NCBI GenBank assembly: GCA_018208355.1
Contig: CP062796.1
Location: 1,918,517 to 1,982,516 of the forward strand
Direction of reading: 5' to 3'
Length of the DNA: 64,000 bases
Source: Candidatus Fermentithermobacillus carboniphilus
GTDB taxonomy: Bacteria; Bacillota; Sulfobacillia; Fermentithermobacillales; Fermentithermobacillaceae
Shown: positions 16,535-61,792 of the stretch, piece by piece
Position numbering within the stretch: the stretch's first letter is position 1
Layout: the number at the start of each line of letters is the position of its first letter
Program-made: the position numbers and the translations under genes
Notes under the pieces: model-generated
Seen by the model: the letters and a program-made list of their open reading frames with translations, nothing else
Told to the model about the DNA's origin: nothing
Database searches by the model: none

Positions 16535-16823
16535 GTTTATCAACCCGTTCCTGTATTGGTTTTTGAGTGAAATGCTCCGGATCAGCATGTTCTACGCAGT
16601 CTGTCCGGTGTCCTTCAGGTAGCCAAACGATGATCACTTGCCCCGGGCAATTGTGCCTACCGAACGTTACCCCGGGATGAACTGGGTCACAAGCGAGTAG
16701 GGCGCCCAAGGGGTTATCTCTATGGGAGTGGAGCTATCGGGTGCAACGGGCCGGTGCCCGGCGTAGAGACATAACCAGAAGGAGGGGGTGGGACAGGCAG
16801 GGAGGTTAAGGACCTAGGACTGA

Positions 16824-17273
16824 ATGTCCGGCAGGTGTGTGTCAATCGGCGCCGGCAATAAAGTCCGGCAGTATGTCTTGGACAATTGGGATGGGATAAA
16901 GACCTCCGATGAAGCTGCGAGCCTTGGAACGATTGAGGGACAGATATACCACCTGATAGCCAGGCGGATGAAGAGAGTGGGAGCCAGGTGGAGCCCGGAC
17001 GGTGCAGATAGGATGGCGCGGCTGCTCGCTGCAAAAGCAAACAATGAGTTAAACGATTATGCCAGCCAACCCGTGAAGAAGGTAAACAAAAGGTTAACAG
17101 CCTTGATAGACAGAACCAAACAGCATATCTCGGAAGACCCGGTCAAACACGCAGAGGACATTGGTGCGTGGCTGCGAGCCAAGGTGTCAGCGCTGCGTGG
17201 TCCCTACCAAAGCATACCGTTTGTCAAGTACGTTTTGCGGAAACTGGTCTATGTTTCATCTGCCAATATCTGA
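16824..17273 (+). pseudogene. Transposase-like C-terminal fragment (ISLre2/UPF0236-like RMKRxGxRWS motif), probably an IS remnant
   Basis: IEGQIYHLIARRMKRVGARWSPDGADRMARLLAAK resembles the conserved C-terminal block of ISLre2-family transposases. It is only 149 aa, with no catalytic domain. Confidence 0.4.
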
Positions 17274-17356
17274 CAGGGCAAAAACTTACTTACTAACTGT
17301 TGACACGGACCCGAGGAATTCCTTACTTGCTAAAAGAGGATATATAAGTTACTCTA

Positions 17357-17662
17357 ATGCTAGTAGGTTTACCGACCGTGGAAAGAGTGCTTACTGTTTC
17401 CGAGGTAGCAGAACGTCTCTCTGTTCACCCTAAAACGGTCTATAACATGCTGGAGCGGGGTGAACTCAGGGGGGTTAAGGTCGGACGGGTATGGCGCGTA
17501 CCGTCCGAAGAGTTGGAAGTCTTCTTGCGCGGCGGCAGGGCTGCTTGTGAAGAGCGACCTCTTCTGCGAGAGTACACGCGGAGGGAAATCCGTCGGTTTC
17601 TCGCGGCGGACAAGGTGGACGAAGAAACAATGCGCAAAGTGGAGCAACTGCTCTGCCAATGA
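17357..17662 (+). CDS. Excisionase/MerR-type HTH DNA-binding protein (putative antitoxin)
   Basis: LTVSEVAERLSVHPKTVYNMLERGELRGVKVGRVWRV is an excisionase-family HTH. Its stop overlaps the start of the PIN gene. Confidence 0.6.
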   Translation: MLVGLPTVERVLTVSEVAERLSVHPKTVYNMLERGELRGVKVGRVWRVPSEELEVFLRGGRAACEERPLLREYTRREIRRFLAADKVDEETMRKVEQLLCQ

Positions 17663-18120
17663 AACGCGTCTTTCTGGATGCGAGTTGCTGGGTCGCAGCT
17701 GCGGGTTCAGCTACCGTCGGCTCCTCACTCATCCTGAAGCTTGCTCGCGCCAGCCACGTTCGCTTGGTAGCGACCAGGCGGGTGCTCCAGGAGGCGGAAT
17801 ACAACATCCGGACCAAAATGGGGGAGGAATCCCTCCTCCGCTATTATCAGCTGCTGGGCTCGGTCGAGCTGGAGTTGGTTTCCCCGGTCACCTCGGAGGA
17901 GGAAGCGAAGTGGTTGAGCCTGGTCACCCCAAAAGATGCACACGTGCTAGCCGGGGCAGCCAAGGCAAAGGCCGACGTCTTGATTTCCCTGGACCGGCGC
18001 CACATCCTGACCGAACGTGCCCGCGAAGGATTTCCCATCCCAGTCCAGGACACGGGAGAATTTCTGCGGGGCATAGCTGAGAAGGTCGAATCACAACGGA
18101 GAGATTGTGGGGAGCCGTGA
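17659..18120 (+). CDS. PIN-domain protein (putative toxin of an HTH-PIN toxin-antitoxin pair)
   Basis: MKRVFLDASCWVAAAG...VLISLDRRHIL pattern with conserved acidic residues. Coupled to the upstream HTH gene. Confidence 0.65.
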   Translation: MKRVFLDASCWVAAAGSATVGSSLILKLARASHVRLVATRRVLQEAEYNIRTKMGEESLLRYYQLLGSVELELVSPVTSEEEAKWLSLVTPKDAHVLAGAAKAKADVLISLDRRHILTERAREGFPIPVQDTGEFLRGIAEKVESQRRDCGEP

Positions 18121-18161
18121 AGCAGCTGAAATCGATGGTTGTTCCCTGATTTGGTTATGCT

Positions 18162-18850
18162 GTAAGCGTCAAATGGTCCCCACATTGCAGGAAAAACTGC
18201 AGCGGGTTTGATGTGGGCATTCGAAGAGAAACAGGATAACTAGGCTTGCTGATTTACCCTGCAATAGTCGGGTAGAGAGTCCGACCACGGCTGCAGCTCG
18301 TCCAGATCGCCGTCTCCGAGGTTCGGCAGCTTTTCAAAGAGGTACTTCAAGTATTCGAACGGAATCAATCCGTTTTCTTTGGCTGTCTCCACAATGCTGT
18401 GGACAATGGAACTGGCCCTGGCACCTTTTGGCGTGTTACAGAACAGCCAGCCCTTCCGGCCTATCACGAACGGTTTGATTGAACGTTCGCAGCGGTTATT
18501 GTCGATCTCAAGCCTTCCGTCCAACAGGAAACGTTCAAGTTTGCTCCACTGGCTCTGGCAATACTTTATGGCCTGACCCAGTAGGCTCTGAGGCAGCACT
18601 CTGGACGACTGAGTCTTCAGCCAGGCTGAGAAAGCATCCAGAACAGGGCGGCTTCGTTCCAGCCGCGCCATGTATCGCTCTTCTGGACCAACATCGCTCA
18701 AGTCGCGTTCTATGGCAAAGAGCTCGTTGCAGAAGTTAAGCCCCTCCAAGGCAGTGGTTGGAGATGCCCGCTTGTCGGCTGGCAGTACGTTCAGTGCATC
18801 GTTGAACTTCCGCATCCCCGGAGCAACGTCACCAGGGCTGAAATGGCTAC
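18162..18850 (-). mobile_element. IS66-family remnant: intact terminal end (GTAAGCGTC...) plus only the C-terminal ~190 aa of the TnpC transposase (ORF 18240-18815). 5'-truncated.
   Basis: The ORF has IS66 TnpC C-terminal motifs (IDNNRCERSIKPFVIGRKGWLFCNTPKGARASSIVHSIVETAKENGLIPFEYL). GTAAGCG, typical of IS66 terminal inverted repeats, sits ~75 bp beyond the stop. Confidence 0.65.
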
Positions 18851-19265
18851 CATCTTGTATAGGATGCTAACGGGGGCGTTAAGTCATGGCCGTTGCCCCG
18901 CTTAGGCAAGTTGTTATTGGTGGAGTTGTAAGACTATAAGAACGCAAAGTGACCCGCCAATACAACCCTTATCAGATCCGAACTGTAATTCACAGCTTTG
19001 GTGTTGTCTTGCCCTCGTTGCCGGTTGTTTCCCGACTCTTCGCTCTCCGGTGAAACCGAAAACGTCTACATTTTGGACAGTATATGAAGATCACGCCCGG
19101 GAACAGGTGAATCGGAAAGTACATTTCCATATGAGATACTTCTCGATTGTATCCGCATACCTTACACGCTACTCTCGGCATAGTCACCACCCTTTCACAT
19201 ATCATTATAATGTAAGCATCACACTGTGCACACCTGGCGTCCCCATCAGACCTGAAGGATAATCT

Positions 19266-19397
19266 CCTCGAAACATCAATCGGGGAAGTTTTACTGTGAC
19301 CAAGGCTGAACAGCAACAGCGGCGTCAGGAATGGGAGAGGCGTATCGCTGAGTACCAAGCCAGCGGGCAGAGCGTTAAGGATTGGTGTGCTGCAAAC
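19266..19397 (+). pseudogene. IS66-family TnpA (OrfA) N-terminal fragment, truncated by the adjacent IS110-derived segment
   Basis: Translation VTKAEQQQRRQEWERRIAEYQASGQSVKDWCAANG matches the W..I..W..SG.S...C pattern of IS66 OrfA N-termini. The reading frame then runs into unrelated IS110 sequence and stops. Confidence 0.35.
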
Positions 19398-19846
19398 GGT
19401 TTTCGCCCTGCAGCAGGCGGTGAAGCGCTTCGTGTTTGAGGTACGCATTTGCTTGCGCCTGGGTGGCTATAGCTCCGGCACCTGCCAGTGCCAAGATGTA
19501 CCTGTTGCCCACTACTGGTCTGCAGGTGGTGATGGCTACACCGACTTCGAGATTGCTCTGGTCCACTGCGAGAATTGAGAAAGTGGAATCAATTGATTGT
19601 TCATGCACCATTCTTTTCCCTCCGGTTCAAGGGTTGTACGTTAGCAGTGGTCGTACTATGGGTCAGCAGTAGCGAGATTCTAGCGGCGAAAGAACTGGAT
19701 AGTTGGTTCTATTGGGGTATATTTCTTATGGAAGATTTCCTGCAGCGGGAAGAGAGGCGCGAGAAGAAATCCGGATTGCCGCTGACCCGTTATTTCTTCT
19801 CTGAGAAGGAGGCACGTTAATCACGTTTTGCTGTCATTTTGTTGTC
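19398..19846 (+). mobile_element. Solo 3'-end copy of the IS110-family element found complete at ~26800-28573 (~95% identical to 28124-28573)
   Basis: A direct read of both regions shows about 20 differences over ~450 bp. The copy covers the last ~45 codons of the transposase plus the whole ~315-bp 3' non-coding region. Both copies end at the identical GTTTTGCTGTCATTTTG(T/C)TGTC. Confidence 0.65.
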
Positions 19847-19849
19847 TCA

Positions 19850-20202
19850 AAAGAGTGATATCAACGGCTTGCGACGTGATATCGGCCTACGCAAAACTTA
19901 ACAAAGTCCAGCTGGAATTTCGTTGTCCGGAGGTTGTTCCGCCCGTTTGGGGAGATGAGGACCAACTGATTCACGCGTTCCTGAACCTTTTTCTCAACGG
20001 CATCCAGGCCATGCCTTCTGGCGGAAAACTCCTGATCGAGCTGGCCAGGAAATCTGGAGCCAGGTACATCCATATCTTCGTGACAGACTCCGGGGTTGGC
20101 ATACCTCTCGAGCACAGGGACCGGCTCTTCGACATGTTTTTCACCACAAAAACCGGCGGGACCGGACTTGGATTGCCTGCTAATCTACCCGAAGTGAGAT
20201 AG
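19850..20202 (+). pseudogene. Sensor histidine kinase C-terminal (HATPase_c) fragment. The gene's 5' part was replaced by IS sequence.
   Basis: N-box (HAFLNLFLNGIQA), G1 (VTDSGVGIP) and G2 (TKTGGTGLGL) motifs are present. There is no HisKA or sensor domain. It starts immediately at the IS110 right end. Confidence 0.6.
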
Positions 20203-20393
20203 CTCGTGTAATGAAGATATAGCGCAGATAAACCCGGGCTGCTATACTCATCTGTAACATGACCCCGGCTAAAAAGGGTAGCCCATGTTCGTAAGGCCTA
20301 AGATGGTAATAGATGGTTTTTAGCCATATTTCACATGAATGGGGGTGGTTTTAATCAGGAGAGAGCGCTTCGACCAAAGATTTTGCCATCGAA

Positions 20394-20738
20394 ATGGTAG
20401 GAGAAGGAAAAAGTAAGGAATACATAGGGAATATAAGCCTCATGAACATCGACTGGTTTTCGGGCACTGCAGAACTGGGTATTTTCATTGGGAACAAAGA
20501 TTACTGGGGCAAGGGATACGGAAGTGATGCCATAAGAACGGTTTTGCGCTTCGCTTTTCTCCAACTGGGCCTGAGAAAAGTATTTTTGCGGGTGATGGGG
20601 AGCAATTTTCGGGCGCAAAGGTGTTACAGAAAAGTGGGATTTAAAGAGGTAGGAAGGATGAAGGCACATCTCCTAAAAAACGGAGAATATGAAGATATGG
20701 TACTTATGGAGACCTTTAAAGAAGAGTTTGCTACTTAG
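20394..20738 (+). pseudogene. GNAT (RimL/RimJ-type) N-acetyltransferase lacking its N-terminal ~60 aa
   Basis: The ORF contains only motif A/B (IGNISLMNIDW...GIFIGNKDYWGKGYGSDAIRTVLRFAF...LRVMGSNFRAQRCYRKVGF). A possible N-terminal piece (MNGGGFNQERALRPKILPSKW) lies in another frame just upstream, consistent with a frameshift or deletion. Confidence 0.55.
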
Positions 20739-20794
20739 CCCCGTTGCGTCCGCGTTTTCCTTTGCCTTCCTCCGGCGCTGCCGCAGGTGCGGGT

Positions 20795-22159
20795 TTACGA
20801 GTTTAACTTTAGCCTGCGTGCTTTTTTCCTTATTGCTTCAATAATAGGAGGAAGCACCTGCTTTTTTCTGGACACGACTGCGTCCAAGAAGAAATGCGTT
20901 CTGCTTTTGACAGCGAATGCCTCCTGGATAAGGGAGGGATCCTGACTGTGCCAAAGGATTAGTGATCCGCTGGCTTGCACATCCGTGAGCATCATCACGA
21001 GCAAGTCGTAACGCCCGTCTTCCGCGAGGTTGGCCATCTCTTCCTGGACCTGTCTAATCACATCAGGCGGCACAGTACCATGTACCATGGTTTGACCTAT
21101 TCCCAGTTTCAAGCCCTCTATGTGGTATTCTTTAAAGTCTGAACGTATGATGTCCCTGGGATTCATCCCATCAATATTAGATCCGGCTGTCAGCATTTCT
21201 CTCCAGAGGTCTTCCAGACATATTCCAGCCCGTTCTGCCAAACTTCTTGCCTGGAAGATATCCTGTTCTGTGGTGGTTGGCGAACGGAAAGCCAGGGTAT
21301 CAGATAGTATGCCTGCACACAAAAGCCCGGCTGATTCTGGCCGCAGCGTAAGCCTTTTATCGGAAGCCATCTTCCCGATTATGGTCGACGTGGATCCGCA
21401 GGGATAGTTAACAAACATAATTGGCTGATCTGTCTGGACCGGGTTTATCCTGTGGTGATCAATGATCTCGAGGATCTTTGCTTCCCCGAGCCCTTCAACA
21501 GCCTGACTTAATTCATTGTGATCTACGAGGATGAACCACTTGCTTGGCCTTTCCAGCAGATGTTTCCTTCTCATGATGCCAAGGGGCTGCCCGTGTTCAT
21601 CTATTACCGGGAACTGCTTGTAATCAAAAACCCTCATTACTTCCTGAACTTCACTTATGGGATCATCAAGAGTGAAAGTTTTGATATCCTGGTCCTCCGT
21701 GAAAACGCCTGCGGCAACTTCCAAAGGTACGCGTTTTCCACTGCGTTTGCTGTCCTCGAATTCGCTTTCATCCAGGGGTAAACGCGAAAGAACTTCTCTG
21801 GCTATGTCGCCCGTCGTTACTATGCCGCAAAGTTTATTATCGTCGTCTACGACGCACACGCACTTAGCGTTTGCTTTCTTCATTACCTGCCAGCATTGAA
21901 AAAGAGATTCTTCCTTTCTCACGGTGATCGCTGGGTCTAAAGAAGCGTCTTTAACCTGGGGGTAAGCATTTTGGATTAATAGTGGAACATCAAAGCCGAA
22001 TTTCTTCAGAACATATGAAGTCTCCCCGTTAACAGGTCCAATTCGAACGGGTTGGGCAGAACACCCGGGTTCCAAAAGATTTTTGATTTCCGCATATACT
22101 ATGGCAGAAACTATTGAATCGCAATCTGGGTTTCTATGACCTACCACATATACAGGCAT
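20795..22159 (-). CDS. CBS-domain-containing manganese-dependent inorganic pyrophosphatase (DHH-CBS-CBS-DHHA2)
   Basis: DHH motifs (VVGHRNPDCDSIVSAIVYAE, LVDHNE, DHH), tandem CBS domains in the middle and a DHHA2 C-terminal region (GSTSTIIG). Start at the internal ATG 22159 with an AGGTGA ribosome-binding site. Confidence 0.8.
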   Translation of the reverse strand: MPVYVVGHRNPDCDSIVSAIVYAEIKNLLEPGCSAQPVRIGPVNGETSYVLKKFGFDVPLLIQNAYPQVKDASLDPAITVRKEESLFQCWQVMKKANAKCVCVVDDDNKLCGIVTTGDIAREVLSRLPLDESEFEDSKRSGKRVPLEVAAGVFTEDQDIKTFTLDDPISEVQEVMRVFDYKQFPVIDEHGQPLGIMRRKHLLERPSKWFILVDHNELSQAVEGLGEAKILEIIDHHRINPVQTDQPIMFVNYPCGSTSTIIGKMASDKRLTLRPESAGLLCAGILSDTLAFRSPTTTEQDIFQARSLAERAGICLEDLWREMLTAGSNIDGMNPRDIIRSDFKEYHIEGLKLGIGQTMVHGTVPPDVIRQVQEEMANLAEDGRYDLLVMMLTDVQASGSLILWHSQDPSLIQEAFAVKSRTHFFLDAVVSRKKQVLPPIIEAIRKKARRLKLNS

Positions 22160-22235
22160 TTTGATCACCTGAGGAGCTGTTTCTTCGAGATTATACCGAA
22201 AAAGTGCGCATAAAAGCAAAGTATGTGATTTCCTC

Positions 22236-23314
22236 TGTTACGGGACAGTGATATTGTCACCCTGTAACGGGACAGAGAAAATGTCACCATGGCGAGAGGA
22301 GACATTTCCTTGAACCCTAAGGAATACATCACGGAACAAGTGCTAGAAGGAAACCTAACGATCAAGCAGGCAGCAGAAATGCTCCAGCTCAGCGAGCAGC
22401 AGGTGAAACGGTTGAAGAAGGGGATGAAAGAAGAAGGGGTAGCAGCCCTGGCACATAAGAACAGAGGCCGCACCCCAAAACATGCCATATCCAAGGATAT
22501 CAGAGATATGGTCTGCTTGCTAGCAACGGGCATTTGCAAAGGTGCCAGCGCGAACCATATGGCCGAGTTGCTCACCGAAAATCACGGCATAAAGATATCC
22601 GCAAAATCGGTCATACGTATCTTGAGGTCAGCTGGGATAATCCCTGAGCCCAAGAAACAGCGCAGGCACCGCAAGGCACGCGAGCGCGCTCCTCAAGAAG
22701 GTCTTCTGGTCCAGATTGACGCCAGCCCATGTAATTGGCTAGAGGGCCGATGTCCTGAGCTTTCTCTGCACGGGGCAATAGATGATGCCACTGGTAAGAT
22801 ACTGGGCCTTTATTTCAGACCGGAGGAAGATCTACGCGGATACTTCGAGGTACTCATGCAGGTGGTGCAGCGGAATGGCGTCCCTAGATGCGTCTACAGC
22901 GATCGTCACACCATCTTCGTGTCGCCCAACAAGGACAAACTGACCATAGAGGAAGAACTAGAGGGCAAAACGGTCAATCTGACCCAGTTTGGAACTGCGT
23001 TGAATGAGCTGGGTATCTCGCATATCCAGGCAAGGTCCCCTGAGGCAAAAGGCCGTATCGAGAGGCTGCCCAACGCGGTCACAAACCTTCCCCAGACCAT
23101 CCATGGCTTCGCTTCTCGCTGCGTAAACCAGACCCAGACCCTATATCCGACTACTTCAGCAGCCATGCAAACAGGCACCTGGACCCCTCTGCAACCCTTA
23201 ATTCGTGGAAACACGGGGGCAGTTAACACTGCCCCCATCACATAACTAACAAGGAAGGTGACATTTTCACTGTCTCATAAACGTCCAAAAGGGGTGACAA
23301 AATCACTGTCCCTT
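22236..23314 (+). mobile_element. Small insertion sequence with imperfect terminal inverted repeats, each end carrying two copies of a ~21-27-bp motif (GGGACAGTGATATTGTCACCC). Encodes a degenerate rve-type (ISNCY/IS481-like) transposase (22289-23245).
   Basis: Left end GGGACAGTGATATTGTCACCC (22242-22262) plus a second copy GGGACAGAGAAAATGTCACC. Right end GGGGTGACAAAATCACTGTCCC (23291-23312) plus an inner copy GGTGACATTTTCACTGTCTC. The transposase has an HTH N-terminus and a DDE core (QIDASP...VYSDRHTIF...SPEAKGRIERL), but the C-terminus after ERL no longer looks transposase-like. The whole element is only ~1.08 kb. Confidence 0.6.
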
Positions 23315-23624
23315 GACAGAGAGAAGCCTAACCGTACAAGAAAGTACTTAACCGGGTGCTGAGTATGCGGGTTACCGCAGTGGTACCTTGTCCGTGCTAC
23401 CTTGCAGCCGGAAGACGGCGTGGGTTAGCCCATGATGGTGCTATGTAGCACCGCCGACCCTCGCACCCAAACCGCATCGATCTGCGGGTCGGCCCGTCGT
23501 GCCAGTCCGTGCACCGCGCGCCAGACGTCCCGGAACACCCTAAATGCCTTCCTACCGGATTCGACGATAGTCAGGCTGGATGCGGCCAGCCATCCCCGGC
23601 CGACAAACATCGCCCGAGGCAGCG

Positions 23625-24662
23625 TTATCCTGCCGCTTTATTGTAAGGATGCTGCTTGTCCTTGGCGGGCGACTTTCGCGACAGGTCTTCCCACTTTCCG
23701 CACCTTGAGCCCCACCGGGTCACGGGAGAGCCGTCTATCAGGATCTCTTGCACCTCGCACGAGTTGGCGCAGTCTTCGCAGATGAACCCGCGACTTTCGG
23801 CCGAGAATGAAGCCACGGTGCTGACTCCCCTGAAGTTACTCCGGGCGCCTGTCTCAAGCCACCTTTCTCGGGCGAACAGAGCTGCCCCGAGAGCTCCCAT
23901 GACCTTGAAATGAGGCGGCACCGTCACCTTCATGTCGATCTTCGTCTCAAGGGCCCACCGCATACCGACATTGGCGGCCACTCCTCCCTGAAACAGGACG
24001 CGGGGACGTATTGGCTGACCTCGTGCCACGTTGGTTATTAAGTTGGTGGCAAGGGCCATGCACAACCCCGCGATGAGATCTTCTTTTCTGTACCCCATCT
24101 GCTGCTTGTGGATCAGGTCCGATTTGGCAAACACGCCGCAGCGGCCCGCGATCCTCGCTGGCGACGACGACCTGAGGGCCCACTCGCCAAACTGTTCAAT
24201 TGGGATACCGGGGCGCGAAGCCTGATGGTCCAGGAACGATCCGGTGCCGGCGGTGCACACCATGTTCATGTTAAAGCTCACAGGGTATCCGTCCTTAAAG
24301 AATATGACTTTAGAATCCTGCCCGCCTATGTCAATGACGGTACCTACATCCGGAAACAGGAAAGACGCAGCCCGGGCGTGGGCCGAGATCTCATTCTTGA
24401 CGACATCGGCCCCGACGATGACCCGCGCCAGCTCCCTCCCCGAACCGGTGGTCCCGACCATGCGGATGGATTCGGTCAGACCCGCTGCTAGCAGGTGTCT
24501 GAAGCTCTCCTGAACGGCCCAGATCGGGCCCCCATGGTTGCGTATGTAGTCCTCAAACACGATGCTGCCGTTATCGGCTATGAGCACGAGCTTGGTCGTG
24601 AGGCTCCCTACATCTATGCCAAGGAAGCCATCCTTCGGTGGGGAAGATTGTGCCATGTTCAT
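23625..24662 (-). CDS. BadF/BadG/BcrA/BcrD-type ATPase (acyl-CoA dehydratase activase-like, YjiL-like). Start at MNMAQ, overlapping the upstream stop (ATGA).
   Basis: ASKHA-fold motifs: GIDVGSLTTKLVLI, DIGGQDSKVI, CTAGTGSFLD and GGVAANVGMRWALE. Confidence 0.75.
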   Translation of the reverse strand: MNMAQSSPPKDGFLGIDVGSLTTKLVLIADNGSIVFEDYIRNHGGPIWAVQESFRHLLAAGLTESIRMVGTTGSGRELARVIVGADVVKNEISAHARAASFLFPDVGTVIDIGGQDSKVIFFKDGYPVSFNMNMVCTAGTGSFLDHQASRPGIPIEQFGEWALRSSSPARIAGRCGVFAKSDLIHKQQMGYRKEDLIAGLCMALATNLITNVARGQPIRPRVLFQGGVAANVGMRWALETKIDMKVTVPPHFKVMGALGAALFARERWLETGARSNFRGVSTVASFSAESRGFICEDCANSCEVQEILIDGSPVTRWGSRCGKWEDLSRKSPAKDKQHPYNKAAG

Positions 24663-26092
24663 AGCCGCTTTTTCCTCCTTCCTGACAGCAACTCGCAGAA
24701 TGCCTCCAGCCTCGTCATGAGCCCCGCCAATCCCGTCTGCTCTGACACCGCCAGCGAGAGGACAGGTATATCTAGGTCGTTGGAAACCTTTACCAGTATG
24801 TTCTGAGCCACTATCTCCGGCATGCATGTGAAAGGAAAAACGTGAATCACTCCGTCCATACCTCTCCTGCTGGCCAGCACGGTTTCTCCCACGGTTTCCT
24901 GCCCGTGGCCGCCGACGGAAACGGGAATATAGCGTCCCGCGGCTCGGATAACCTCGAAGCGTTCCCATAGAGCCCGGGGAGTCTTCAACAGATGAGCGCC
25001 AACCCAGTTCGAGACATTGAGCCTCCTGTACACTCTCACCCGCGTATCGAGTGACCCCAAGACCTTCTCGATATCCCTATTGGCAAACGGCTCGTTGACG
25101 ACATAGATCTCACCGACCAGTGCTACCCTGAGGGGTTCTCCCGGATGAGTCCACAACTTTTTCATATCCCGCACGAACTCGGTGTAAACTGCCTCAACGC
25201 TCCTCATGTCAGTCGCAGCCTGAACCCCCGAAAGAAATTGCCTGTAGCGCCTGTCCCCAGCTCCTCTTTCCTCCTCCCGCGCGCGAGTCTCCCTGAGGAT
25301 GTCCTCGGCCCTGTCAAGCACGGCGAGTTTCTTCACGGCCAGCGATATTGCCCTGACCAGGGCACCGATCCTCGGGCTTCCTATCGCTTCCCTGACCACC
25401 TGCAGGAACCTCTCGCCCTTTTCCCTCCAGGGCAGCGGCGAATCAACCGCAAGGATCTTCACCCTGTATCCTGCACGGTGAAGTATCTGCTCCATGATCT
25501 GGGCATACCAGCCAAGGCGGCACCTGCCCTTCCCCTGGACCATCAGTATCCGGTCGACGCCTTTCTGGATGAGGCTCCTTATCTGGCCGAGCAAAGTCAC
25601 CATCGGATAACAGATGAACTCAGGGGCAAGTTCCCGGCCTAGGCTCACTACTCCATCTGATAGGGGTTCTGGCTCGACGACTCGGGTGCCAAGCTCTCGC
25701 AGCATCGACGTCACAGGGATCCTGAGGGTACCCATATCTACGATGCCCAGGACCCGACCACCTGAACCGCCAGCCCAGCCGCCGCTGTGCAGGGAGTTCA
25801 GGCCCGCGAGGACCGCCTCCCCGACGCCTTCTACCGCCGGACGGCCCGGGTTCAGGTCCCCCGGAGCAGACGGACCCGCGGATGGGCCCGAGGCGATCAA
25901 CTTCCCGAAGGCGTGTGCCTGCTTTAGGGATAGGTCCATGAATACCTCGAGACGGGTCAACAGGCCGGCTTCTCCCGTGTGTTCGTCGACTACCAGGCTG
26001 ATGAACGGTATCCCGTTATCCTCCGCCGCCTGTGCTATGTAGCTCTCTATAACCGATGCTGGACCGCACGAAAATGCCGACACCATTATCAT
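24659..26092 (-). CDS. Acyl-CoA dehydratase activase-related/HgdB-YjiM-like protein (C-terminal part of a DUF2229-type protein). Start taken at MIMVSAF.
   Basis: Repeated F.C.P-type motifs (MVSAFSCGPASV... and VIHVFPFTCMPEIVAQN) characteristic of DUF2229/CoA-enzyme-activase-associated proteins. The N-terminal 118 aa of the track ORF overlap the next gene and look spurious. Confidence 0.55.
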   Translation of the reverse strand: MIMVSAFSCGPASVIESYIAQAAEDNGIPFISLVVDEHTGEAGLLTRLEVFMDLSLKQAHAFGKLIASGPSAGPSAPGDLNPGRPAVEGVGEAVLAGLNSLHSGGWAGGSGGRVLGIVDMGTLRIPVTSMLRELGTRVVEPEPLSDGVVSLGRELAPEFICYPMVTLLGQIRSLIQKGVDRILMVQGKGRCRLGWYAQIMEQILHRAGYRVKILAVDSPLPWREKGERFLQVVREAIGSPRIGALVRAISLAVKKLAVLDRAEDILRETRAREEERGAGDRRYRQFLSGVQAATDMRSVEAVYTEFVRDMKKLWTHPGEPLRVALVGEIYVVNEPFANRDIEKVLGSLDTRVRVYRRLNVSNWVGAHLLKTPRALWERFEVIRAAGRYIPVSVGGHGQETVGETVLASRRGMDGVIHVFPFTCMPEIVAQNILVKVSNDLDIPVLSLAVSEQTGLAGLMTRLEAFCELLSGRRKKRL

Positions 26093-26112
26093 GCGGCGTA
26101 TCTTCCTGGTCT

Positions 26113-26775
26113 TCAGCAGATGAAGGGCAGAACCCAGTATGTGCCCCTCGATGGACCAGAGTTCTCGCCCTCGAATATGTCCCGCAGGTACTGTCGGCTT
26201 GCCTCCTCGGGTACCATTTCTGGAAGGATGACAGGGCCGTAAACCGATACTGTTCGAACTACCGTCCTCCCGAAGATGTCGTGCAGCACGTACGCATGCC
26301 CCAGGACAGCTGTGGCATCGTCCCCGGCGGCCCGGAGTGTGTTGCTCTCGGGGAAGTTCCGAAGATTCCGGAGAAGGCAGGCAGAGTCCGCACCTACCGC
26401 AACATCTCGCCCTTCGACGTAATCCGCTATGCAGCCGCATCCGCATGCCATGGCGATCACCGGATTTATGATCTGGTCCTCAGGAAGCCCGAGTCCGGCC
26501 TTCAGCATTGAGGCCAGGCCGATCATCTTGGGGCAGCAGTAGTTTTCCGGCGATATGGATACAGGGGTCGGAAGGAAGATGGCGTCCGCGCCGCAGTCGG
26601 TCAGCAGTTTCCTGGCGTGAGGAAAAGCGATCTTCACTGATATGCAGGGTTCGTCCGTGGGGCACAGCGTGAGCTGTTCAAGGTCCTTTGCGCTGGACGG
26701 AGGGCTTTCGACGAATTCAACTCCCAATTGGCTGAGAAATGTCCGATACAGCGGGAACAGGTAGTAGACTGTCAT
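26113..26775 (-). CDS. DUF2229 N-terminal domain protein (possibly the N-terminal half of a gene split from 24659-26092)
   Basis: MTVYYLFPLYRTFLSQLGVEFVESPP...CISVKIAFPHARKLL...AIFLPTPVSI matches the DUF2229 N-terminus. The ORF ends 20 nt before the next ORF's likely start in a different frame. Confidence 0.5.
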   Translation of the reverse strand: MTVYYLFPLYRTFLSQLGVEFVESPPSSAKDLEQLTLCPTDEPCISVKIAFPHARKLLTDCGADAIFLPTPVSISPENYCCPKMIGLASMLKAGLGLPEDQIINPVIAMACGCGCIADYVEGRDVAVGADSACLLRNLRNFPESNTLRAAGDDATAVLGHAYVLHDIFGRTVVRTVSVYGPVILPEMVPEEASRQYLRDIFEGENSGPSRGTYWVLPFIC

Positions 26776-26799
26776 CCACCACCCATTGCAGCGTTCGGT

Positions 26800-28573
26800 T
26801 TTGCAGGTTGGGCTGCCCCAGGGGCAACGCCCGTGTCACACAGTAGATTGAATAGGCAATTAGGAAACGGTGGGGTCGCCAGTTACGCCATCTTTTAATT
26901 GGAGGTGCGCATATGAATGCAGTCGGCATTGATGTGTCAAAAGGTAGAAGCGTGGTCGCCATCCTGCGGCCCGGTGGAGAGATCGTTGCCCGCCCGTATG
27001 AGGTCAGCCATACGAGAGACGGGCTGGCGCAGTTGGCAACACGTCTGAAGGACCTGCCCGGGGAGACCAGGGTGGTCATGGAGCATACCGGGCATCACTT
27101 CGAGTCCATCGCCCGCTCCCTGCATGAAGCTGGCATCTTCGTTAGCGTTGTCAATCCGCTTTTGATCCACCAGTATGGCAACAATTCGATCCGGAACGTG
27201 AAGACCGACCGGAAAGACGCTGTCAAACTGGCGAAGTACGCCTTGGACCGCTGGGCTGAGCTGCCTGCCTACACACCTGAGGATGAGAACCGCAGGATGC
27301 TGAGGATCTACAATCGGCAGTACAACCAGTACACGAAAATCAAGGTGATGCTGAAGAACAACCTGATCGCCCTGCTAGACCAGACGTTCCCGGGCGTCAA
27401 CACCCTGTTTTCAAGTCCCGCCCGTGAGGACGGTCACGAGAAATGGGTGGATTTCGCCGCCAAGTTCTGGCACTGCCAGGAAGTGACAAAGTTGTCTGAG
27501 CGGGCCTTCAAAGAGCGTTACGCCAAGTGGTGCAAGCGGAACGGCTACTGTTACGCAGATGACGCAGCCGGGCGGATTTACTCGGCGGCACAAGGGCAGG
27601 TGGGCGTGCTGCCAGCCAATGCCGCGACTAAATGCCTGGTCACTCAAGCCATCGAGCAATTGAATGCTGTGGCAGGGACTCTAGCGGCTGTCGGCCGTGA
27701 AATGCGCCGTTTGGCCTCGCTTTTGCCTGAGGCAGCCGTCGTCGGGCAAATGTACGGCGTCGGCCCGACGCTGGGTCCCCAGCTTATCGCCGAGATAGGC
27801 GACGTGCGGCGTTTCCACAGCAAGAAGGCCTTGGTGGCCTTTGCCGGCATTGACGCCCCACCCTACCAGTCAGGGAACTTTGATGCAAAGAAACGCACGA
27901 TCTCCAAGCGCGGCTCCCCGGCCTTACGGAAAGCCCTGTTTCAGACCATCTGCGGCATTCTGAGGCTGGGCTCGCCGGATTCGGAGGTCTATCAGTATTT
28001 GGCCAAGAAACGGGCGGAGGGGAAGCACTTCTACGTCTACATCATGGCAGGAGCCAACAAATTCCTGCGCATCTACGTCGAACCGCAGGTCTTGACGGCT
28101 CAGACTATGCAGGATCTGCTCCGGGTTTTCGCCCTGCAGCAGGCGGTGAAGCGCTTCGTGTTTGAGGTACGCATTTGTTTGTGCCTGGGTGGCTACAGCT
28201 CCGGCACCTGCCAGTGCCAAAGATGTACCTGTTGCCCACTGCTGGTCTGCAGGTGGTGATGGCTACACCGACTTCGAGGTTGCTCTGGTCCACTGCGAGA
28301 ATTGAGAAAGTGGAATCAGTTGATTGTTCATGCACCACTGTTTTCCCTCCGGTTCAAGGGTTGTACGTTAGCAGTGGTACGTACTCTGGGTCAGCAGTAG
28401 CGAGATTCTAGTGGCGAAAGAGCTGGATAGTTGGTTCGATTGGGGTATATTTCTATGGCAGATTTCCTGCAGCGGGAAGAGAGGCGCGAGAAGAAATCCG
28501 GATTTCCGCTGACCCGTTATTTCTTCTCTGAGAAGGAGGCACGTTCATCACGTTTTGCTGTCATTTTGCTGTC
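26800..28573 (+). mobile_element. IS110-family insertion sequence: transposase (26913-28259) plus a ~315-bp conserved 3' non-coding region. The left boundary is not resolved. It lies immediately 3' of tRNA-Pro.
   Basis: The transposase has the IS110/IS116/IS902 N-terminal DEDD domain (MNAVGIDVSKG...) and C-terminal domain (GVGPTLGPQLIAEIGDVRRFHSKKALVAFAGIDAPPYQSGNF). The 3' ~450 bp, including the non-coding part, is duplicated at 19398-19846. Confidence 0.8.
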
Positions 28574-28633
28574 AAACCGCCAGGGTCCTACAGACATGGG
28601 CCTTAGGGCAGAGGCATTATGCTTGGGTTTTAA

Positions 28634-28710
28634 TGGTCGGGGCGAGTGGATTTGAACCACCGACCTCATGGTCCCGAACCATGCGCGCTGCCAAGCTGCG
28701 CTACGCCCCG
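28634..28710 (-). tRNA. tRNA-Pro (anticodon CGG)
   Basis: The reverse complement folds as a canonical cloverleaf: acceptor CGGGGCG/CGCCCCG, D-arm GCGC-AGCUUGGCA-GCGC, anticodon stem CAUGG/CCAUG with loop UUCGGGA, T-arm GGUGG-UUCAAAU-CCACU, discriminator A and an encoded CCA. Confidence 0.85.
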
Positions 28711-28986
28711 ACGCAAGACATTATACCACCCGGTTGTGACGGATATCAACCGAAAGTACTGCTTGCCGAAAGTGCTGCTGGCCTTGCCTTGGCTCGCCTT
28801 CCCTCGCGGCTTCATCTACTGAAACTTTACACTGCCTACTGCTCCTACCGTGAGTTCGCTAGCACCGCTGATGCGGGCAAAGACGTACATTTGCTCAATC
28901 TTCCATGGCCTGTTAGAAAACGCGCTGCCTCTGTCGCCGAATAGATACTTGCGGTTGCAGGCATCCTTCAAATGGAGGTGCGTTAA

Positions 28987-29520
28987 ATGACACATCAACT
29001 GACCCAAAAGGAAAGGATGCTGTTGAGTGACCAGTTAAGCCACGAAGAGATCTGCATCCAGAAGTACTCGGGGTACGCGGAAAAGGCAAAAGATCCTGCG
29101 GTGCGGAACATGTTCAACCAGTTTGCCCGGGAAGAGCAGAACCACTACAACATGTTGAACCAGTTCCTGGGCGGCCAAATGTCCGGGGAGCAGGGAAGTC
29201 AAGTACAGCAGGGAGGGCAGGCAGGTAAGGCAGGGAGTTTACAGGGCAGCGGGTTTACCCTGAACTTCGGTGAGTCTCAGGTTCAGGGGCGGTACGTGGC
29301 AGGAGATCAGGCAAAAGCTGATCAGCAGGATTCATCTATGCTTCAGGACATGCTTATGACGGAAAAATACGTTTCCGGGACCTACGATACAGCCATCTTT
29401 GAAACCGTCAACCCAACTATCAGACAGTCTCTTCAGCATATCCAGGAAGATGAGCAAAAGCACGGCGAAGCCATCGCCAAGTACATGAAGGAACATGGCA
29501 TGTACCAGGTTCAACAATGA
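28987..29520 (+). CDS. cotF: Spore coat protein CotF-like (two Coat_F domains)
   Basis: N-terminal Coat_F repeat (LTQKERMLLSDQLSHEEICIQKYSGYAEKAKDPAVRNMFNQFAREEQNHYNMLNQFL) and a C-terminal repeat (LMTEKYVSGTYDTAIFETVNPTIRQSLQHIQEDEQKHGEAIAKYM), separated by a Gln/Gly-rich linker. Confidence 0.75.
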   Translation: MTHQLTQKERMLLSDQLSHEEICIQKYSGYAEKAKDPAVRNMFNQFAREEQNHYNMLNQFLGGQMSGEQGSQVQQGGQAGKAGSLQGSGFTLNFGESQVQGRYVAGDQAKADQQDSSMLQDMLMTEKYVSGTYDTAIFETVNPTIRQSLQHIQEDEQKHGEAIAKYMKEHGMYQVQQ

Positions 29521-55955: not shown

Positions 55956-57215
55956 TTGCGAGAACCGAACAGTCCGGTGTCCGGGCAATTCGTCCCGGGG
56001 TCTTTCCGGGTGGGTGAGAACCTGAAGATCAAGGTGCGGCCCGAAGATTTTGTAGTGAGAGAAAGAGTGACCCTCGCTTTCTCTCCAGAGGGTCCCTACA
56101 GGATATATGTCCTCGAAAAGCGCTTCTGGAATACCATAGACGCCCTGAGGCTCATAGCGGAAAAAAACCGCGTCCCTTTATCAGAGATCGGTTACGGGGG
56201 CCGGAAAGACCGGTACGGGCTGACCTTCCAGCACATCTCTGTTCCGCGCATCTATGAGCTGAATTTAGAAGAACCCAACGTCAAGCTCACTTTCCTTGGA
56301 TACTCGGGTGACTTCGTTTCTCCGGAAGTCCTGGAAGGAAATGATTTCGAGCTCACTCTGAGAGATATAGACCCTTCCCAGGAGGGGTACCTGGAAAGAC
56401 GCCTTGAGGAGATTTGCCGGTGGGGGTTTCCCAACTACTTCGACGATCAGAGATTCGGCAGCGTGGAGCACCCGGATGAGTTTTTCGCCGAGAGGCTGAT
56501 AAAGAACCATTACAGGGGTGCTCTCAAGATATATTTTACCGCTATCTTCCCGGGTTACAAAAAGGCCGAGAAAGAAAGACGCCGGAAAATCGAGGAATGC
56601 TTCGGGAACTGGGACGAGGTCGAGAGATTGTCCCGGACCCCCGTAGAGAGAATGATTGCCAGGATACTCAAGGAGGGCGGAAGCAAGAGAAACCTGGTCC
56701 GTGCCATAAACGCCATACCCAAGGAGGAACTCTCAATGTTTTTCGCGGCGTACCAAAGCTATCTGTGGAATAAGACCCTGGAACGCATCCTGCCGCGGTA
56801 CGCCGGAGATCTTTTCGGGGTTAAAGGGAAGATTATGACTTACTATTTCTACCGGCGGCTCGGCGAGAAAGAGTTTTCGTACCTTTCTGGCTTGGAGATA
56901 CCGGTTGTCGCCCAGCATCTCGAGCCTGCGCCTCCTGAAGTCCGGGATGTCATAGAAGAGGTTCTGGAAGAAAGGGGTATCAGGCCGAACCAGTTCAACC
57001 TCAGGGATATCCGGAAAGTATATTTCAAATCTTTCCTGAGGCGTGCGATAGTGGTGCCCGGGGAATTCCGCAGAGGTCCTTTCAAAGATGACGAACTATA
57101 CCCGGGCAAGAGAAAACTCGAACTCGGGTTTTTTCTTCCTGCTGGTTCTTTTGCCACGATGATGGTCAAGTCACTGACTCTCTTTGCTCGGGCAGAAGGC
57201 GGGGAAGACTCTTGA
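55956..57215 (+). CDS. truD: tRNA pseudouridine(13) synthase TruD
   Basis: N-terminal PEDFVVRE, the catalytic block (GYGGRKDRYGLTFQHISV) and the FPNYFDDQRFG motif. Confidence 0.8.
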   Translation: MREPNSPVSGQFVPGSFRVGENLKIKVRPEDFVVRERVTLAFSPEGPYRIYVLEKRFWNTIDALRLIAEKNRVPLSEIGYGGRKDRYGLTFQHISVPRIYELNLEEPNVKLTFLGYSGDFVSPEVLEGNDFELTLRDIDPSQEGYLERRLEEICRWGFPNYFDDQRFGSVEHPDEFFAERLIKNHYRGALKIYFTAIFPGYKKAEKERRRKIEECFGNWDEVERLSRTPVERMIARILKEGGSKRNLVRAINAIPKEELSMFFAAYQSYLWNKTLERILPRYAGDLFGVKGKIMTYYFYRRLGEKEFSYLSGLEIPVVAQHLEPAPPEVRDVIEEVLEERGIRPNQFNLRDIRKVYFKSFLRRAIVVPGEFRRGPFKDDELYPGKRKLELGFFLPAGSFATMMVKSLTLFARAEGGEDS

Positions 57216-57356
57216 AAATGGAAGTGCCGAGAGTTACAGGCATCGGGATTCACAGGTGTGACGGCCTTTAGATGTGAAGGAATACAGGTATGAAAGTTCA
57301 CGGGCTTGGAAGATTACACGTCTTCAGGGTTAAAACGAGTGAAAGGACTGAGGATT

Positions 57357-58418
57357 TTGCAAAAAACGGGCGACTTTTCGGACTACCTCGTCTCGGGGCT
57401 GAGTTCCGACGGAAGGTTTCGGGTCCTGGCGGTGAGAACTACCGCTCTTGTGGAAGAGGCCCGGAGACGTCACTGTGCTTCAAGGACCGGTACTGCCGCA
57501 CTGGGGCGGGTTCTCACGGGGGCGGTCCTGATGGCGGGCACCCTGGATGAAGACCAATCGGTTACGCTGCGTTTTTTGGGAAACGGACCTGGAGGCGGCA
57601 TCATCGCTGAAGCGAGAAACGAGGGAGACATGATAACTGCGAGAGGCTACATGGGAGATCCATCGGTTGAGTTGCCTCTTTCACCCCAGGGCAAGCTTGA
57701 TGTAGGCGGAGTCGTCGGCAAAGACGGGTTTCTCTATGTCACAAAAGACCTCGGGTTGAAGGAACTGTATACAGGAAGCGCAAAGATCCAGTCAGGAGAG
57801 GTGGGCCTGGACATCGCCTACTATTACACTGTGTCCGAACAGCTCCCGTCGGCTGTATCTATAGGAGTGAGAGTAGGCGGTACGGTTATGGATCAGACCG
57901 GGGCGGCTGCCCGCCACAGACCCGGTGAGCTTGGCACTTCAGAAGAAACTGAGGATGGCCGGCGTGTCGTGTCAGGTGCCGGTGGACTCATGGTGCAGCT
58001 CATGCCGGGTGCGGAAGACGAAGAGACTGGCGTTGCCATATCGAAGATTCAGGATAACTTGGAACGCATGGGTTCAGTGAGTCTCCTTATCCAGGAAGGC
58101 AGGCCTCCGGAGCAACTCGTGGAGGCCGCTTTCGAAGGTGTCCGGGAGGTTACCCTCATGAGGAAGGTGCCGGTGACCTTCTCCTGCCGCTGTTCGCGGG
58201 ACAGGGCGGTTTCGGCTATCGTCAGCATGGGACGGGAAGAGGTGGAGAAACTGGCGGACGAAAAAGATGAGATAGAGGTGAGGTGCCACTTCTGTAACGA
58301 AGTCCACAGGTTCTCCCGGGAAGAACTCCGGGAGATCGCGAGATCCATGGGGGACACAGCCTCAAGCAACGACCCAAGGTCCGAGCCAGACGACTTTAAA
58401 GAAGCAAAGCAGGGGTAA
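57357..58418 (+). CDS. hslO: Hsp33 redox-regulated chaperone (HslO)
   Basis: Hsp33 N-domain (DYLVSGLSSDGRFRVLAVRTTALVEEARRRH) and the C-terminal zinc centre CRCSRD...CHFCNEVH (CxC...CxxC). Start taken at the TTG after the AGGACTGAGGA ribosome-binding site; the track ORF starts at 57306. Confidence 0.8.
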   Translation: MQKTGDFSDYLVSGLSSDGRFRVLAVRTTALVEEARRRHCASRTGTAALGRVLTGAVLMAGTLDEDQSVTLRFLGNGPGGGIIAEARNEGDMITARGYMGDPSVELPLSPQGKLDVGGVVGKDGFLYVTKDLGLKELYTGSAKIQSGEVGLDIAYYYTVSEQLPSAVSIGVRVGGTVMDQTGAAARHRPGELGTSEETEDGRRVVSGAGGLMVQLMPGAEDEETGVAISKIQDNLERMGSVSLLIQEGRPPEQLVEAAFEGVREVTLMRKVPVTFSCRCSRDRAVSAIVSMGREEVEKLADEKDEIEVRCHFCNEVHRFSREELREIARSMGDTASSNDPRSEPDDFKEAKQG

Positions 58419-58423
58419 CGGTC

Positions 58424-59500: not shown

Positions 59501-59635
59501 AAAAGTCCCTTGGACCTGCCCCGATGTTTGATGGTACGGATGGCGGTATGTAAGCCAAACATGATCAAATGGAATTCCTGTTCATCGGATGGAATTCCAG
59601 TTAAGTTAAGTCTCTGGCGGAGGGATTGAGGGACG

Positions 59636-61704: not shown

Positions 61705-61792
61705 TGGCAGCATACCCTCTGGATCGGCCGAAAGTAAAGAGCCCCCGGCGTCACTGTCCCTTTGTGGGATCTATCGCGGTTCCGCCTCAGTC

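Follow-up and report, generated by a model that had tools for sequence, protein, structure and literature searches.

Does the group of minus-strand genes that lies between two insertion sequences (IS) beside a tRNA gene in Candidatus Fermentithermobacillus carboniphilus Bu02 encode a working enzyme module, or what is left of one? We analyzed the locus within a window of 64,000 nucleotides, the whole stretch of DNA considered here, starting from an initial annotation that described three genes, two of them possibly halves of one gene broken by a frameshift. Our conclusion is that the locus is very probably the remnant of a two-gene operon that is dead in Bu02. The features that bear on this reading, in window coordinates, are as follows.

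22233-23321, plus strand: remnant of an ISNCY-family element (1,089 bp); its terminal inverted repeats, at 22233-22288 and 23257-23321, are imperfect
23625-24662, minus strand: HgdC/BcrAD-type activator ATPase, 345 aa, with a Cys-rich C-terminal extension (Pfam, TIGR00241)
24659-26775, minus strand: DUF2229-family (PlsA/Ger-like) Fe-S reductase/dehydratase component, ~730 aa, a pseudogene annotated as ORFs of 220 aa and 477 aa (11-homologue profile)
24659-26092, minus strand: 477-aa ORF QUL98237.1 ("CoA protein activase"), with partial HGD-D and DUF2229 matches
26113-26775, minus strand: 220-aa ORF QUL98238.1 ("hypothetical"), matching DUF2229 profile positions 9-126
26161-26163, minus strand: frameshift, a 1-nt deletion in GAG AA(N) CTC TGG, where homologues read EGEKMW
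26341-26448, minus strand: 36 in-frame codons without family homology, replacing profile positions 117-179 (63 positions)
26766-28076, plus strand: IS110-family element, 3'-truncated, 92.3% identical to positions 3855-5164 of contig L007 over exactly that span
26913-28259, plus strand: IS110 transposase ORF, 448 aa (DEDD_Tnp_IS110 and Transposase_20 in Pfam/NCBIfam)

The 220-aa and 477-aa ORFs are one gene. The stop codon of the former reaches to 26113, and after a gap of 20 nt an ATG follows at 26092 in the -1 frame. When the window ORFs were compared with Pfam, DUF2229 (PF09989) was matched with E values of 3e-20 and 1e-9 and HGD-D with an E value of 2e-11. Using a family profile made from 11 intact homologues, we found matches in one frame at 26772-26449 (profile positions 10-116) and 26340-26161 (180-239) and in a second frame at 26173-24665 (positions 236-721); by tblastn, the two matches to the split gene overlap at 26164-26170. 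A single inserted base restores the reading ...IFEGE(K)LWSIEGH..., and the homologues of the repaired protein that were listed, at least 120 of them, are all single chains of 690-790 aa with ~100% coverage. The suspected splitting of one DUF2229 gene by a frameshift is thus borne out, and since the two ORFs are one gene, the three minus-strand genes become two. QUL98237.1 and QUL98238.1 should therefore be replaced by one flagged pseudogene. The ORFs themselves, both IS elements, the tRNA gene and the gap all lie at, or a few bases from, the places where the initial annotation had put them. The same module, now of two genes, also exists away from mobile elements, as the order DUF2229 then ATPase without a nearby IS was found at three independent loci, Neomoorella thermoacetica among them. 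One homologue, P0046, is a natural fusion with the reductase first and the ATPase second, the order of the operon.

The frameshift, at codon ~205, is accompanied by losses on its 5' side. Family homology begins only at profile position 10: ~11 codons at the start of the gene are gone together with all sequence 5' of them, the left end of the IS110 element (26766) adjoins codon ~12 and provides the 220-aa ORF with its start, ATG-ACA-GTC, and the sequence beyond 26765 is IS110. Further into the gene, a segment conserved in the family as KDxPxxWxxxW..AA..LGV..aLrxGlxaW is replaced by the 36 codons at 26341-26448. Identity to the family in this block is 0.10 in the window, compared to 0.23-0.41 for all others, and no family match was found there in any frame (short-word tblastn and the family profile, three frames). 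We rejected further frameshifts within the block, as the matches were weak and mutually inconsistent (best E value 0.005 in a tiny search space). Because the replacement is in frame, it could represent lineage-specific divergence instead of damage. Compared with intact homologues, then, the gene has a disrupted frame, seen also in an Illumina-only contig described below, and has lost its start codon, N terminus and upstream region. Its 3' 347 codons differ from those of a relative at three residues (omega 0.05), with the relative's contig ending 460 nt before the frameshift site; thus, either the inactivation is recent or this part is still constrained.

The partner ATPase has an open reading frame. 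BcrAD_BadFG covers residues 14-264 (E value 6e-50) and is followed by an 80-aa C-terminal extension with the motif FxCxDCxNxCE...RWGSRCGKW; TIGR00241 scores 190 bits against a cut-off of 125, and PDB matches include HgdC (1hux), MbdQ (9gai_D), HadI (4eht) and DCCP-R (7yyl_E). Conserved along with the Cys-rich tail are C136 and C175, which align with cysteines of MbdQ and which, from the published HgdC structures, we take to be the [4Fe-4S] ligands. Partner ATPases at homologous loci are 340-380 aa long and 62-77% identical and keep the motif. Compared to P0241, the ATPase of a 97%-identical relative, the window protein shows 12 differences. When these were polarized with P0241 and 111 homologues, nine of the 10 polarizable changes were derived in the window and one in the relative. 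Three of the window residues (A137T, L151P and E180K) fall at positions that are invariant in 110-111 of the 111 homologues, and the total of four deviations at conserved columns lies inside the upper tail of the homologues' range.

Both IS elements are defective. Homology between the IS110 element and its intact copy stops at 28076, 48 nt short of the transposase stop, and the element is incomplete: the last ~15 transposase codons are absent and the ORF reads through into flanking DNA, while full-length homologues, at 403 aa, align to 87% of the 448-aa ORF. An exact 26-mer from the start of this transposase had no match in a genome contig collection that lacks Bu02. The transposase of the other element ends early, after profile position 242 of 368, and the annotated "ISNCY transposase" is a remnant. 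Homology to relatives is lost at 22236 (contig L175) and at 23339, 17 nt beyond the ISNCY end (contig L170). The truncation of the DUF2229 gene by IS110, its lost internal segment, the defects of the two IS elements and the larger 12-kb patchwork to which the operon belongs had all escaped the initial annotation.

To place the operon in its surroundings, we traced synteny through clusters of flank proteins and then their contigs. The relative GCA_012840505.1 is collinear with the window up to 16624 (97.7%) and from 28628 onward (96.7%), with a different gene set of ~17 kb between ogt and tRNA-Pro. The corresponding part of the window is specific to this strain and comprises the following.

16625-28627, no strand assigned: strain-specific stretch of 12 kb from ogt to the tRNA-Pro 3' end, with the operon, four defective IS and several gene fragments
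19398-19846, minus strand: DUF1028 gene 5' fragment and upstream region, the first of two copies, which share 95.8% identity
20179-22236, minus strand: block of a 5'-deleted GNAT gene and a CBS-DHH pyrophosphatase gene, collinear with relative contig L175, of low GC3
28077-28573, minus strand: DUF1028 gene 5' fragment and upstream region, copy 2, which has a frameshift and is severed by the truncated IS110
28634-28710, minus strand: tRNA-Pro(CGG), whose 3' end bounds the variable stretch on the right

The stretch adjoins a tRNA 3' end and is absent from the close relative at this site. There was no integrase among the ORFs scanned, and the 3' 25-mer of the tRNA had no second copy with up to three mismatches allowed, so the stretch cannot be classified as a classical integrative island. 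It resembles decaying accessory regions in being variable and bounded by a tRNA 3' end, but differs in having neither integrase nor att repeat. Likewise, the locus resembles known cases of IS-mediated inactivation and pseudogene decay near tRNA genes in its 5' IS insertion, secondary deletions and frameshift and in the decay of the partner gene through missense changes. An Rfam scan of 19000-29500 returned the tRNA alone, and promoter and terminator predictions near the operon did not exceed what shuffled sequence would give. For the flanking sigma-54 activator gene, the best matches in genome and metagenome contigs were 42-43% identical, with no close relative.

Could the gene be intact after all, or functional as it stands? 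Assemblies based on Nanopore reads often have indels. The closed Bu02 genome, metagenome-assembled, was built from MinION reads with Flye and polished with Pilon (PMC10215811), and a frameshift produced by sequencing or assembly would leave a gene that is really intact. We give this almost no credence. Through Table S3 we identified SRR24392716 as the Illumina run of the same sample; in the Logan k-mer assembly of this run alone, contig L001 is 100% identical to the window over 22608-26795, deletion included, and the deletion is therefore not a Nanopore error. (The contig ends at 26795, 30 nt into the IS110 element that starts at 26766; 30 is one below what we take to be the k-mer size of Logan.) The deletion site, GAGAACTCTGG, contains no homopolymer, and no single-base error would explain the loss of ~11 codons and of an internal segment. 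That the two halves work, as separately translated subunits or through programmed -1 ribosomal frameshifting, with an intact ATPase, is also very unlikely, even though the characterized Clostridium perfringens enzyme likewise comes from two genes, plsA and plsR (CPE1194/1195; PMC12838417). A plausible ribosome-binding site (AGGAAG) lies ~9 nt upstream of the ATG of the 477-aa ORF, and a truncated product may be made from it; the low omega of the 3' part would also fit, as would the retention of every residue that is invariant in the family, the lost segment aside. However, the break falls at no domain border but inside the first module, ~30 residues before the AFSCGP cysteine motif, and the upstream ORF, with its N terminus lost, starts at an ATG derived from IS110 that has no Shine-Dalgarno sequence. 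Among the more than 100 homologues listed, none is split, and the ATPase is substituted at invariant positions. Programmed frameshifting was rejected, as the shift site has no slippery heptamer and one nucleotide of a conserved codon is missing.

The presence of IS elements and a tRNA gene had been read as a sign of horizontal acquisition. As far as this means variable DNA, it holds, since a 97%-identical relative differs here. A discrete, recently transferred, IS-bracketed unit of three genes resembling a composite transposon is highly improbable, as the stretch is a 12-kb patchwork. IS elements do flank both sides, the operon has GC3 values among the highest in the window (z +1.7 to +2.4), and the site beside tRNA-Pro differs from that of the relative. 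Yet the codon-usage distance of the operon is ordinary, the two IS are of different families and both defective, we saw no target-site duplications at either end of the ISNCY element, and the IS110 element interrupts the operon rather than flanking it. The lack of an integrase and of a repeat of the tRNA 3' end also argues against such a unit. In another sample, moreover, a 97%-identical copy of the operon has a different downstream flank and a junction without ISNCY, which indicates that the operon predates the present IS arrangement.

What the operon once encoded can be approached through intact homologues. Because the window gene is broken, the fold was examined in the intact homologue P0003, which matches DUF2229 profile positions 1-215 and has an HGD-D tail. 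All 14 PDB matches to its AF2 model (pLDDT 87.7) at E values of 1e-3 or below were HadBC, BzdNO, MbdON or DCCP (1e-7 to 3e-4); when the DUF2229 profile was compared with PDB sequences, only a marginal match to DCCP emerged (best E value 0.009 over 65 residues). ATP-driven electron injection is the mechanism common to 2-hydroxyacyl-CoA dehydratase, class I benzoyl-CoA reductase and DCCP systems. The module resembles HgdAB/HgdC, HadBC/HadI, BzdNOPQ, MbdONPQ and DCCP/DCCP-R in an ATPase with both cluster cysteines and in the modeled fold of its partner. It differs from them in having both catalytic modules on a single chain, in its marginal sequence similarity to solved structures, in its Pfam family, DUF2229, and in the additional 80-residue Cys-rich tail of its ATPase.

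By domain composition, the family appears to belong to the PlsA/Ger branch of the BCR/HAD/DCCP superfamily, and not with YjiL/YjiM, the type to which it was initially assigned. Escherichia coli YjiL and YjiM are of the same superfamily, but YjiL (255 aa, 37% identical to the ATPase core) has no Cys-rich extension, and YjiM (383 aa) has one full HGD-D and no DUF2229, with a 31-residue local match to the family (E value 0.007). The module was also called uncharacterized, a label that is not supported, as DUF2229 with BcrAD_BadFG is the combination of PlsA/PlsR and Ger (PMC13159169, PMC12838417). In membrane glycerolipids, these enzymes convert the acyl ester at sn-1 to a vinyl or alkyl ether (PMC13159169, PMC12838417, PMC9702350), and they share with the module a BcrAD_BadFG activation domain, DUF2229 and HGD-D-like reduction/dehydration domains (PMC13159169). 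Single-gene forms of PlsA occur in Enterococcus, Lactococcus and Bifidobacterium, and Ger occurs in Thermotoga maritima (Tmari_0479) and D. alkenivorans. Ger and single-gene PlsA carry two N-terminal activation domains ahead of DUF2229 (BBD), an arrangement shared by every confirmed alkyl-ether producer (PMC13159169), whereas the window's family has one activation domain, placed after the reductase (a C-terminal fusion in P0046), and a Cys-rich tail; the window copy differs further in being a pseudogene. For PlsA homologues that lack an activation domain, the role has been called unclear (PMC13274423). N. thermoacetica, which carries the two-gene module, makes plasmalogen-derived DMAs.

We favor a decaying two-gene operon. 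When intact, its first gene would have encoded a protein of ~730 aa with two HAD/BCR/DCCP-type modules (DUF2229 and HGD-D-like tails) and Fe-S-type conserved cysteines, and its second an ATPase that, by analogy with HgdC, HadI and DCCP-R, would form a dimer around a [4Fe-4S] cluster. By the same analogy, ATP hydrolysis by the second product would push a low-potential electron into the first. Decay may have begun with insertion of IS110 at codon ~12 of the first gene, followed by a deletion that would have taken the right end of the element together with the gene's start and promoter, a 1-nt deletion that shifted the frame, and replacement of the conserved segment. The ATPase gene, by then purposeless and probably not expressed, would have accumulated damaging substitutions. 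With its first gene beheaded by an IS and shifted by a one-base deletion, this is an ordinary dying accessory locus. If the operon is dead, Bu02 cannot use the module, and ether-lipid formation or a related reduction cannot be inferred from its presence; metabolic inference from metagenome-assembled genomes needs a check for split DUF2229 genes.

The window also holds, as first described, a second HgdABC-like set, which is the one that resembles the YjiL/YjiM type.

58424-61704, plus strand: canonical set, apparently intact, of HGD-D (358 aa), HGD-D (431 aa) and BcrAD_BadFG activase (258 aa)

Its activase is 41% identical to P0241. It is conceivable, though unlikely, that the intact relatives of the operon form an enzyme class of their own, a two-gene branch of PlsA/Ger in which the reductase comes first and is followed by a single activase with a Cys-rich tail and whose substrate may not be a glycerolipid sn-1 ester, and that the open ATPase of Bu02 may have been kept because it cross-activates the dehydratase of this second set. 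For studying such a sub-architecture of the plasmalogen-synthase family, an organism with an intact copy, for example N. thermoacetica, would be preferable. The two-gene branch is widespread in thermophilic anaerobes, occurring in Neomoorella, Thermanaeromonas, Ammonifex, Desulforudis, Limnochordia and Bipolaricaulota.

Together, the minus-strand genes at 23625-26775 are a two-gene operon, now pseudogenised, that belongs to the PlsA/Ger-like branch of the BCR/HAD/DCCP superfamily. The region around them, adjoining tRNA-Pro, is variable, decaying and riddled with IS elements. All features listed in the initial annotation, including a second HgdABC-like set, are present. The 477-aa ORF is identical to QUL98237.1 of 'Candidatus Fermentithermobacillus carboniphilus' Bu02.

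Features of the operon, its surroundings and the second set
22233-23321: ISNCY-type remnant with imperfect inverted repeats
23625-24662, minus strand: ATPase, 345 aa; BcrAD_BadFG over residues 14-264, TIGR00241 at 190 bits, last 80 residues an extension
24659-26092, minus strand: 477-aa ORF; partial HGD-D and DUF2229 matches
26113-26775, minus strand: 220-aa ORF; DUF2229 profile positions 9-126
26913 (start): IS110 transposase
28634-28710: tRNA-Pro(CGG)
58424-61704: second set; HGD-D, HGD-D, BcrAD_BadFG

A 20-nt gap separates the end of the 220-aa ORF from the next ATG, which opens an ORF in the -1 frame. We joined the two frames between IFEGE and LWSIEGH and searched 5.8 billion proteins with this query. 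Except for the window's own 477-aa call, the best 120 matches were single proteins, nearly all of 690-790 aa, and most of them aligned over ~100% of the repaired query, with 37-59% of residues identical. The consensus of the homologues at the junction is IFEGEKMWxIEGHILG. Restoring one base changes GAG AAC TCT GG to GAG AAN CTC TGG, indicating that the gene has lost 1 nt at 26161-26163. A tblastn comparison with four homologues gave a pair of matches, one per frame, overlapping at 26164-26170, and a profile of 11 homologues matched at positions 180-239 in the frame upstream of the lesion (26340-26161) and at 236-721 in the downstream frame (26173-24665). Thus, of the two readings offered initially, a frameshift or two normally fused genes, the frameshift is borne out: the homologues are continuous and the frames of a single gene switch at 26161-26170.

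Bu02 is represented by a closed MAG (2,316,832 bp) recovered from a coal-fire gas vent. For its assembly, one sample supplied both the MinION reads (assembled with Flye, polished with Pilon) and the Illumina reads (PMC10215811). A sequencing artefact was largely ruled out as the source of the frameshift, since the deletion site is not a homopolymer and a Logan contig of SRR24392716, the Illumina data set from the same sample (Table S3, PMC10215811), is 100% identical to window positions 22608-26795.

The DUF2229 gene has two further lesions. Homologues begin MRVGVPRxLSFYYLFPLY, whereas the window ORF begins MTVYYLFPLY, and its profile match starts at position 10. An IS110 copy from another metagenome (contigs L007/L008), 92% identical, aligns to exactly 26766-28076, and the Logan contig ends at 26795, 30 nt inside the IS110 repeat, a break that is expected if Logan assemblies use k = 31. 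Together, these observations identify ATG-ACA-GTC-T (26775-26766) as IS sequence. What remains of the native gene begins at codon ~12; the original start codon, ribosome-binding site and promoter have been lost. Profile positions 117-179, which include the conserved KDxPxxWxxxW..AA..LGV..aLrxGlxaW, could not be matched in any frame, and 36 unrelated in-frame codons (26448-26341) occupy their place. Within this block, the identity of the window to the other sequences is 10%, compared to 23-41% for each of those; outside it, its similarity to the homologues is on par with theirs. A search of the divergent segment for compensating frameshifts gave only weak, mutually inconsistent matches.

The normal module was seen in three loci of different organisms, one of them Neomoorella thermoacetica: a DUF2229 gene of 727-746 aa with a BcrAD_BadFG gene of 339-378 aa immediately after it. 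Neighbouring genes differ between these loci, and no IS elements were found near the module in any of the three. One 1,081-aa homologue (P0046) is a fusion of the DUF2229 protein and the ATPase in unchanged order. Partner ATPases in these modules share 62-77% identity with that of the window, and all carry the tail FxCxDCxNxCE...RWGSxCGKW, so the long C-terminal extension is a family trait.

The window ATPase ORF is open and keeps both cysteines that align with cysteines of MbdQ and HgdC. A search with this ATPase identified a relative's copy (P0241) with 97% identity; it lies on a Logan contig of 2,474 nt from another sample (L170), which aligns to window positions 25702-23339 at 97.0%. Between the two sequences, dS is 0.08 for both genes; omega is 0.19 for the ATPase (12 amino-acid differences) and 0.05 for the final 347 codons of the DUF2229 gene (three differences). 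As omega is low in the disrupted gene's 3′ portion, inactivation was probably recent relative to the split from the relative. When polarised against 111 homologues, nine of the 12 ATPase differences were derived in the window, one in the relative, and two were ambiguous. A137T, L151P, and E180K occur at positions with a single residue in 110-111 of the 111 homologues, and T134M at a position that is only Thr or Ser among them. The window ATPase has four deviations at conserved columns in total, which places it no further out than the upper tail of the homologues. The substitutions fit relaxed selection after loss of the partner.

For an intact DUF2229 homologue (P0003), an AlphaFold2 model from a 61-sequence alignment reached pLDDT 87.7 and pTM 0.89. 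The only matches to this model at E<=1e-3 were (R)-2-hydroxyisocaproyl-CoA dehydratase, BzdNO, MbdON, and the double-cubane cluster protein; comparison by sequence only gave a marginal DCCP match and nothing else. Conserved cysteines in the first half (LCPTDEPC, YCCPK, AFSCGP) and second half (EFICYP, GKGRCRLGWYAQ, PFTCMPE) appear to be of the kind that binds Fe-S clusters. Ger, a modified anaerobic plasmalogen synthase PlsA, starts with two BcrAD_BadFG domains and continues with DUF2229 and HGD-D pieces (PMC13159169). PlsA homologues without the activation domain also occur in Bacillota genomes, where their role was called unclear (PMC13274423). The family described here fits that description, but with an activase encoded next door. 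For the substrate of this single-activase sub-architecture, intact carriers are the better place to look.

The operon had been labelled YjiL/YjiM type, which we do not retain. E. coli YjiM has one complete HGD-D domain in 383 aa, lacks DUF2229, and aligns with P0003 only over a local stretch of 31 residues. E. coli YjiL, at 255 aa, shows 37% identity to the ATPase core and has no tail. The YjiL/YjiM type is represented by the window's second set, whose activase is 41% identical to P0241. That canonical Hgd-like set is apparently intact; within 55956-62162, TruD and Hsp33 genes are followed by HGD-D, HGD-D, the activase, and a 153-aa ORF for which no Pfam match was found. The N. thermoacetica DUF2229 module likewise lies near a TruD gene (L004/L005 10122-11282), probably by coincidence.

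Cluster look-ups with flank proteins led to a relative, MAG GCA_012840505.1, which occurs in biogas-fermenter assemblies too. Collinearity of this MAG with the window extends up to 16624 (97.7%) and resumes from 28628 (96.7%), six bases beyond the tRNA-Pro 3′ end. Between these flanks it carries ~17 kb of other genes (L171 1-9635; L176 1-9911), comprising ArsD/ArsA, an SNF2+NOV_C helicase, AAA_13, DUF1156, DUF499, and DUF433-PIN, which looks like a defence and resistance island. The interval from ogt to tRNA-Pro is a point at which gene content is swapped. In the window, this 12-kb stretch (16625-28627) is a patchwork of defective IS elements, gene fragments and the operon.

Other features of the patchwork
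16824-17273: UPF0236/ISLre2-type transposase fragment, 149 aa of a 477-aa protein
18240-18815: IS66 transposase fragment, C-terminal 191 aa of a 521-aa protein
within 16625-28627: HTH-PIN pair
19398-19846 and 28124-28573: two DUF1028 5′ fragments with upstream region
19828-20202: isolated histidine-kinase fragment, HATPase_c profile positions 1-77 of 111
20179-20738: GNAT gene with a 153-bp deletion relative to L175 3328-4042
20795-22159: intact CBS-DHH pyrophosphatase

The DUF1028 fragments form a direct repeat (451 bp, 95.8% identity, 3 gaps, copies 8.7 kb apart). The second copy is frameshifted and ~47 nt longer, reaching the truncated IS110; the histidine-kinase fragment ORF starts inside the repeat. 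The GNAT gene, 179 aa in a 96.5%-identical relative contig (L175), has lost its start within the 153 bp; what is left of it, 114 aa, stands in the NCBI annotation as a normal gene.

The operon has high GC3 for the window (z +1.7 to +2.4) with ordinary codon usage. GC3 of the pyrophosphatase (0.49) and of the GNAT fragment (20394-20738; 0.47) is far below that of 36 other window ORFs (mean 0.63, sd 0.03), suggesting that this block has a foreign origin separate from that of the adjoining operon. L175, which carries the pyrophosphatase block, loses homology at 22236 and L170, which carries the operon, at 23339, at or near the ISNCY ends, indicating that the present neighbours were joined by rearrangement. 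As the 17 nt (23322-23338) between the ISNCY right end and the start of L170 homology match neither, the junction is no simple insertion. The proposed horizontal acquisition is supported, as horizontal or at least accessory status, for the whole region, where the collinear relative carries other genes between 16624 and 28628. It does not extend to an IS-bracketed islet moving as a discrete unit: the region is a patchwork, homology breaks at the ISNCY ends, and neither an integrase nor a repeat of the tRNA 3′ end was found.

Both IS elements are also defunct. Of the 368 positions of its profile, the ISNCY transposase matches only 2-242. The IS110 transposase has full-length relatives of 403 aa, which cover 87% of the 448-aa ORF in the window; homology to the intact IS110 copy ends at 28076, 48 nt short of its stop codon, and past this point the ORF continues into the DUF1028 gene fragment. 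The 147-nt left non-coding end of IS110 (26766-26912), which in this family encodes the guide (bridge) RNA, is still present. No Rfam match was found in this end, and the NCBIfam label of the transposase is 'RNA-guided'.
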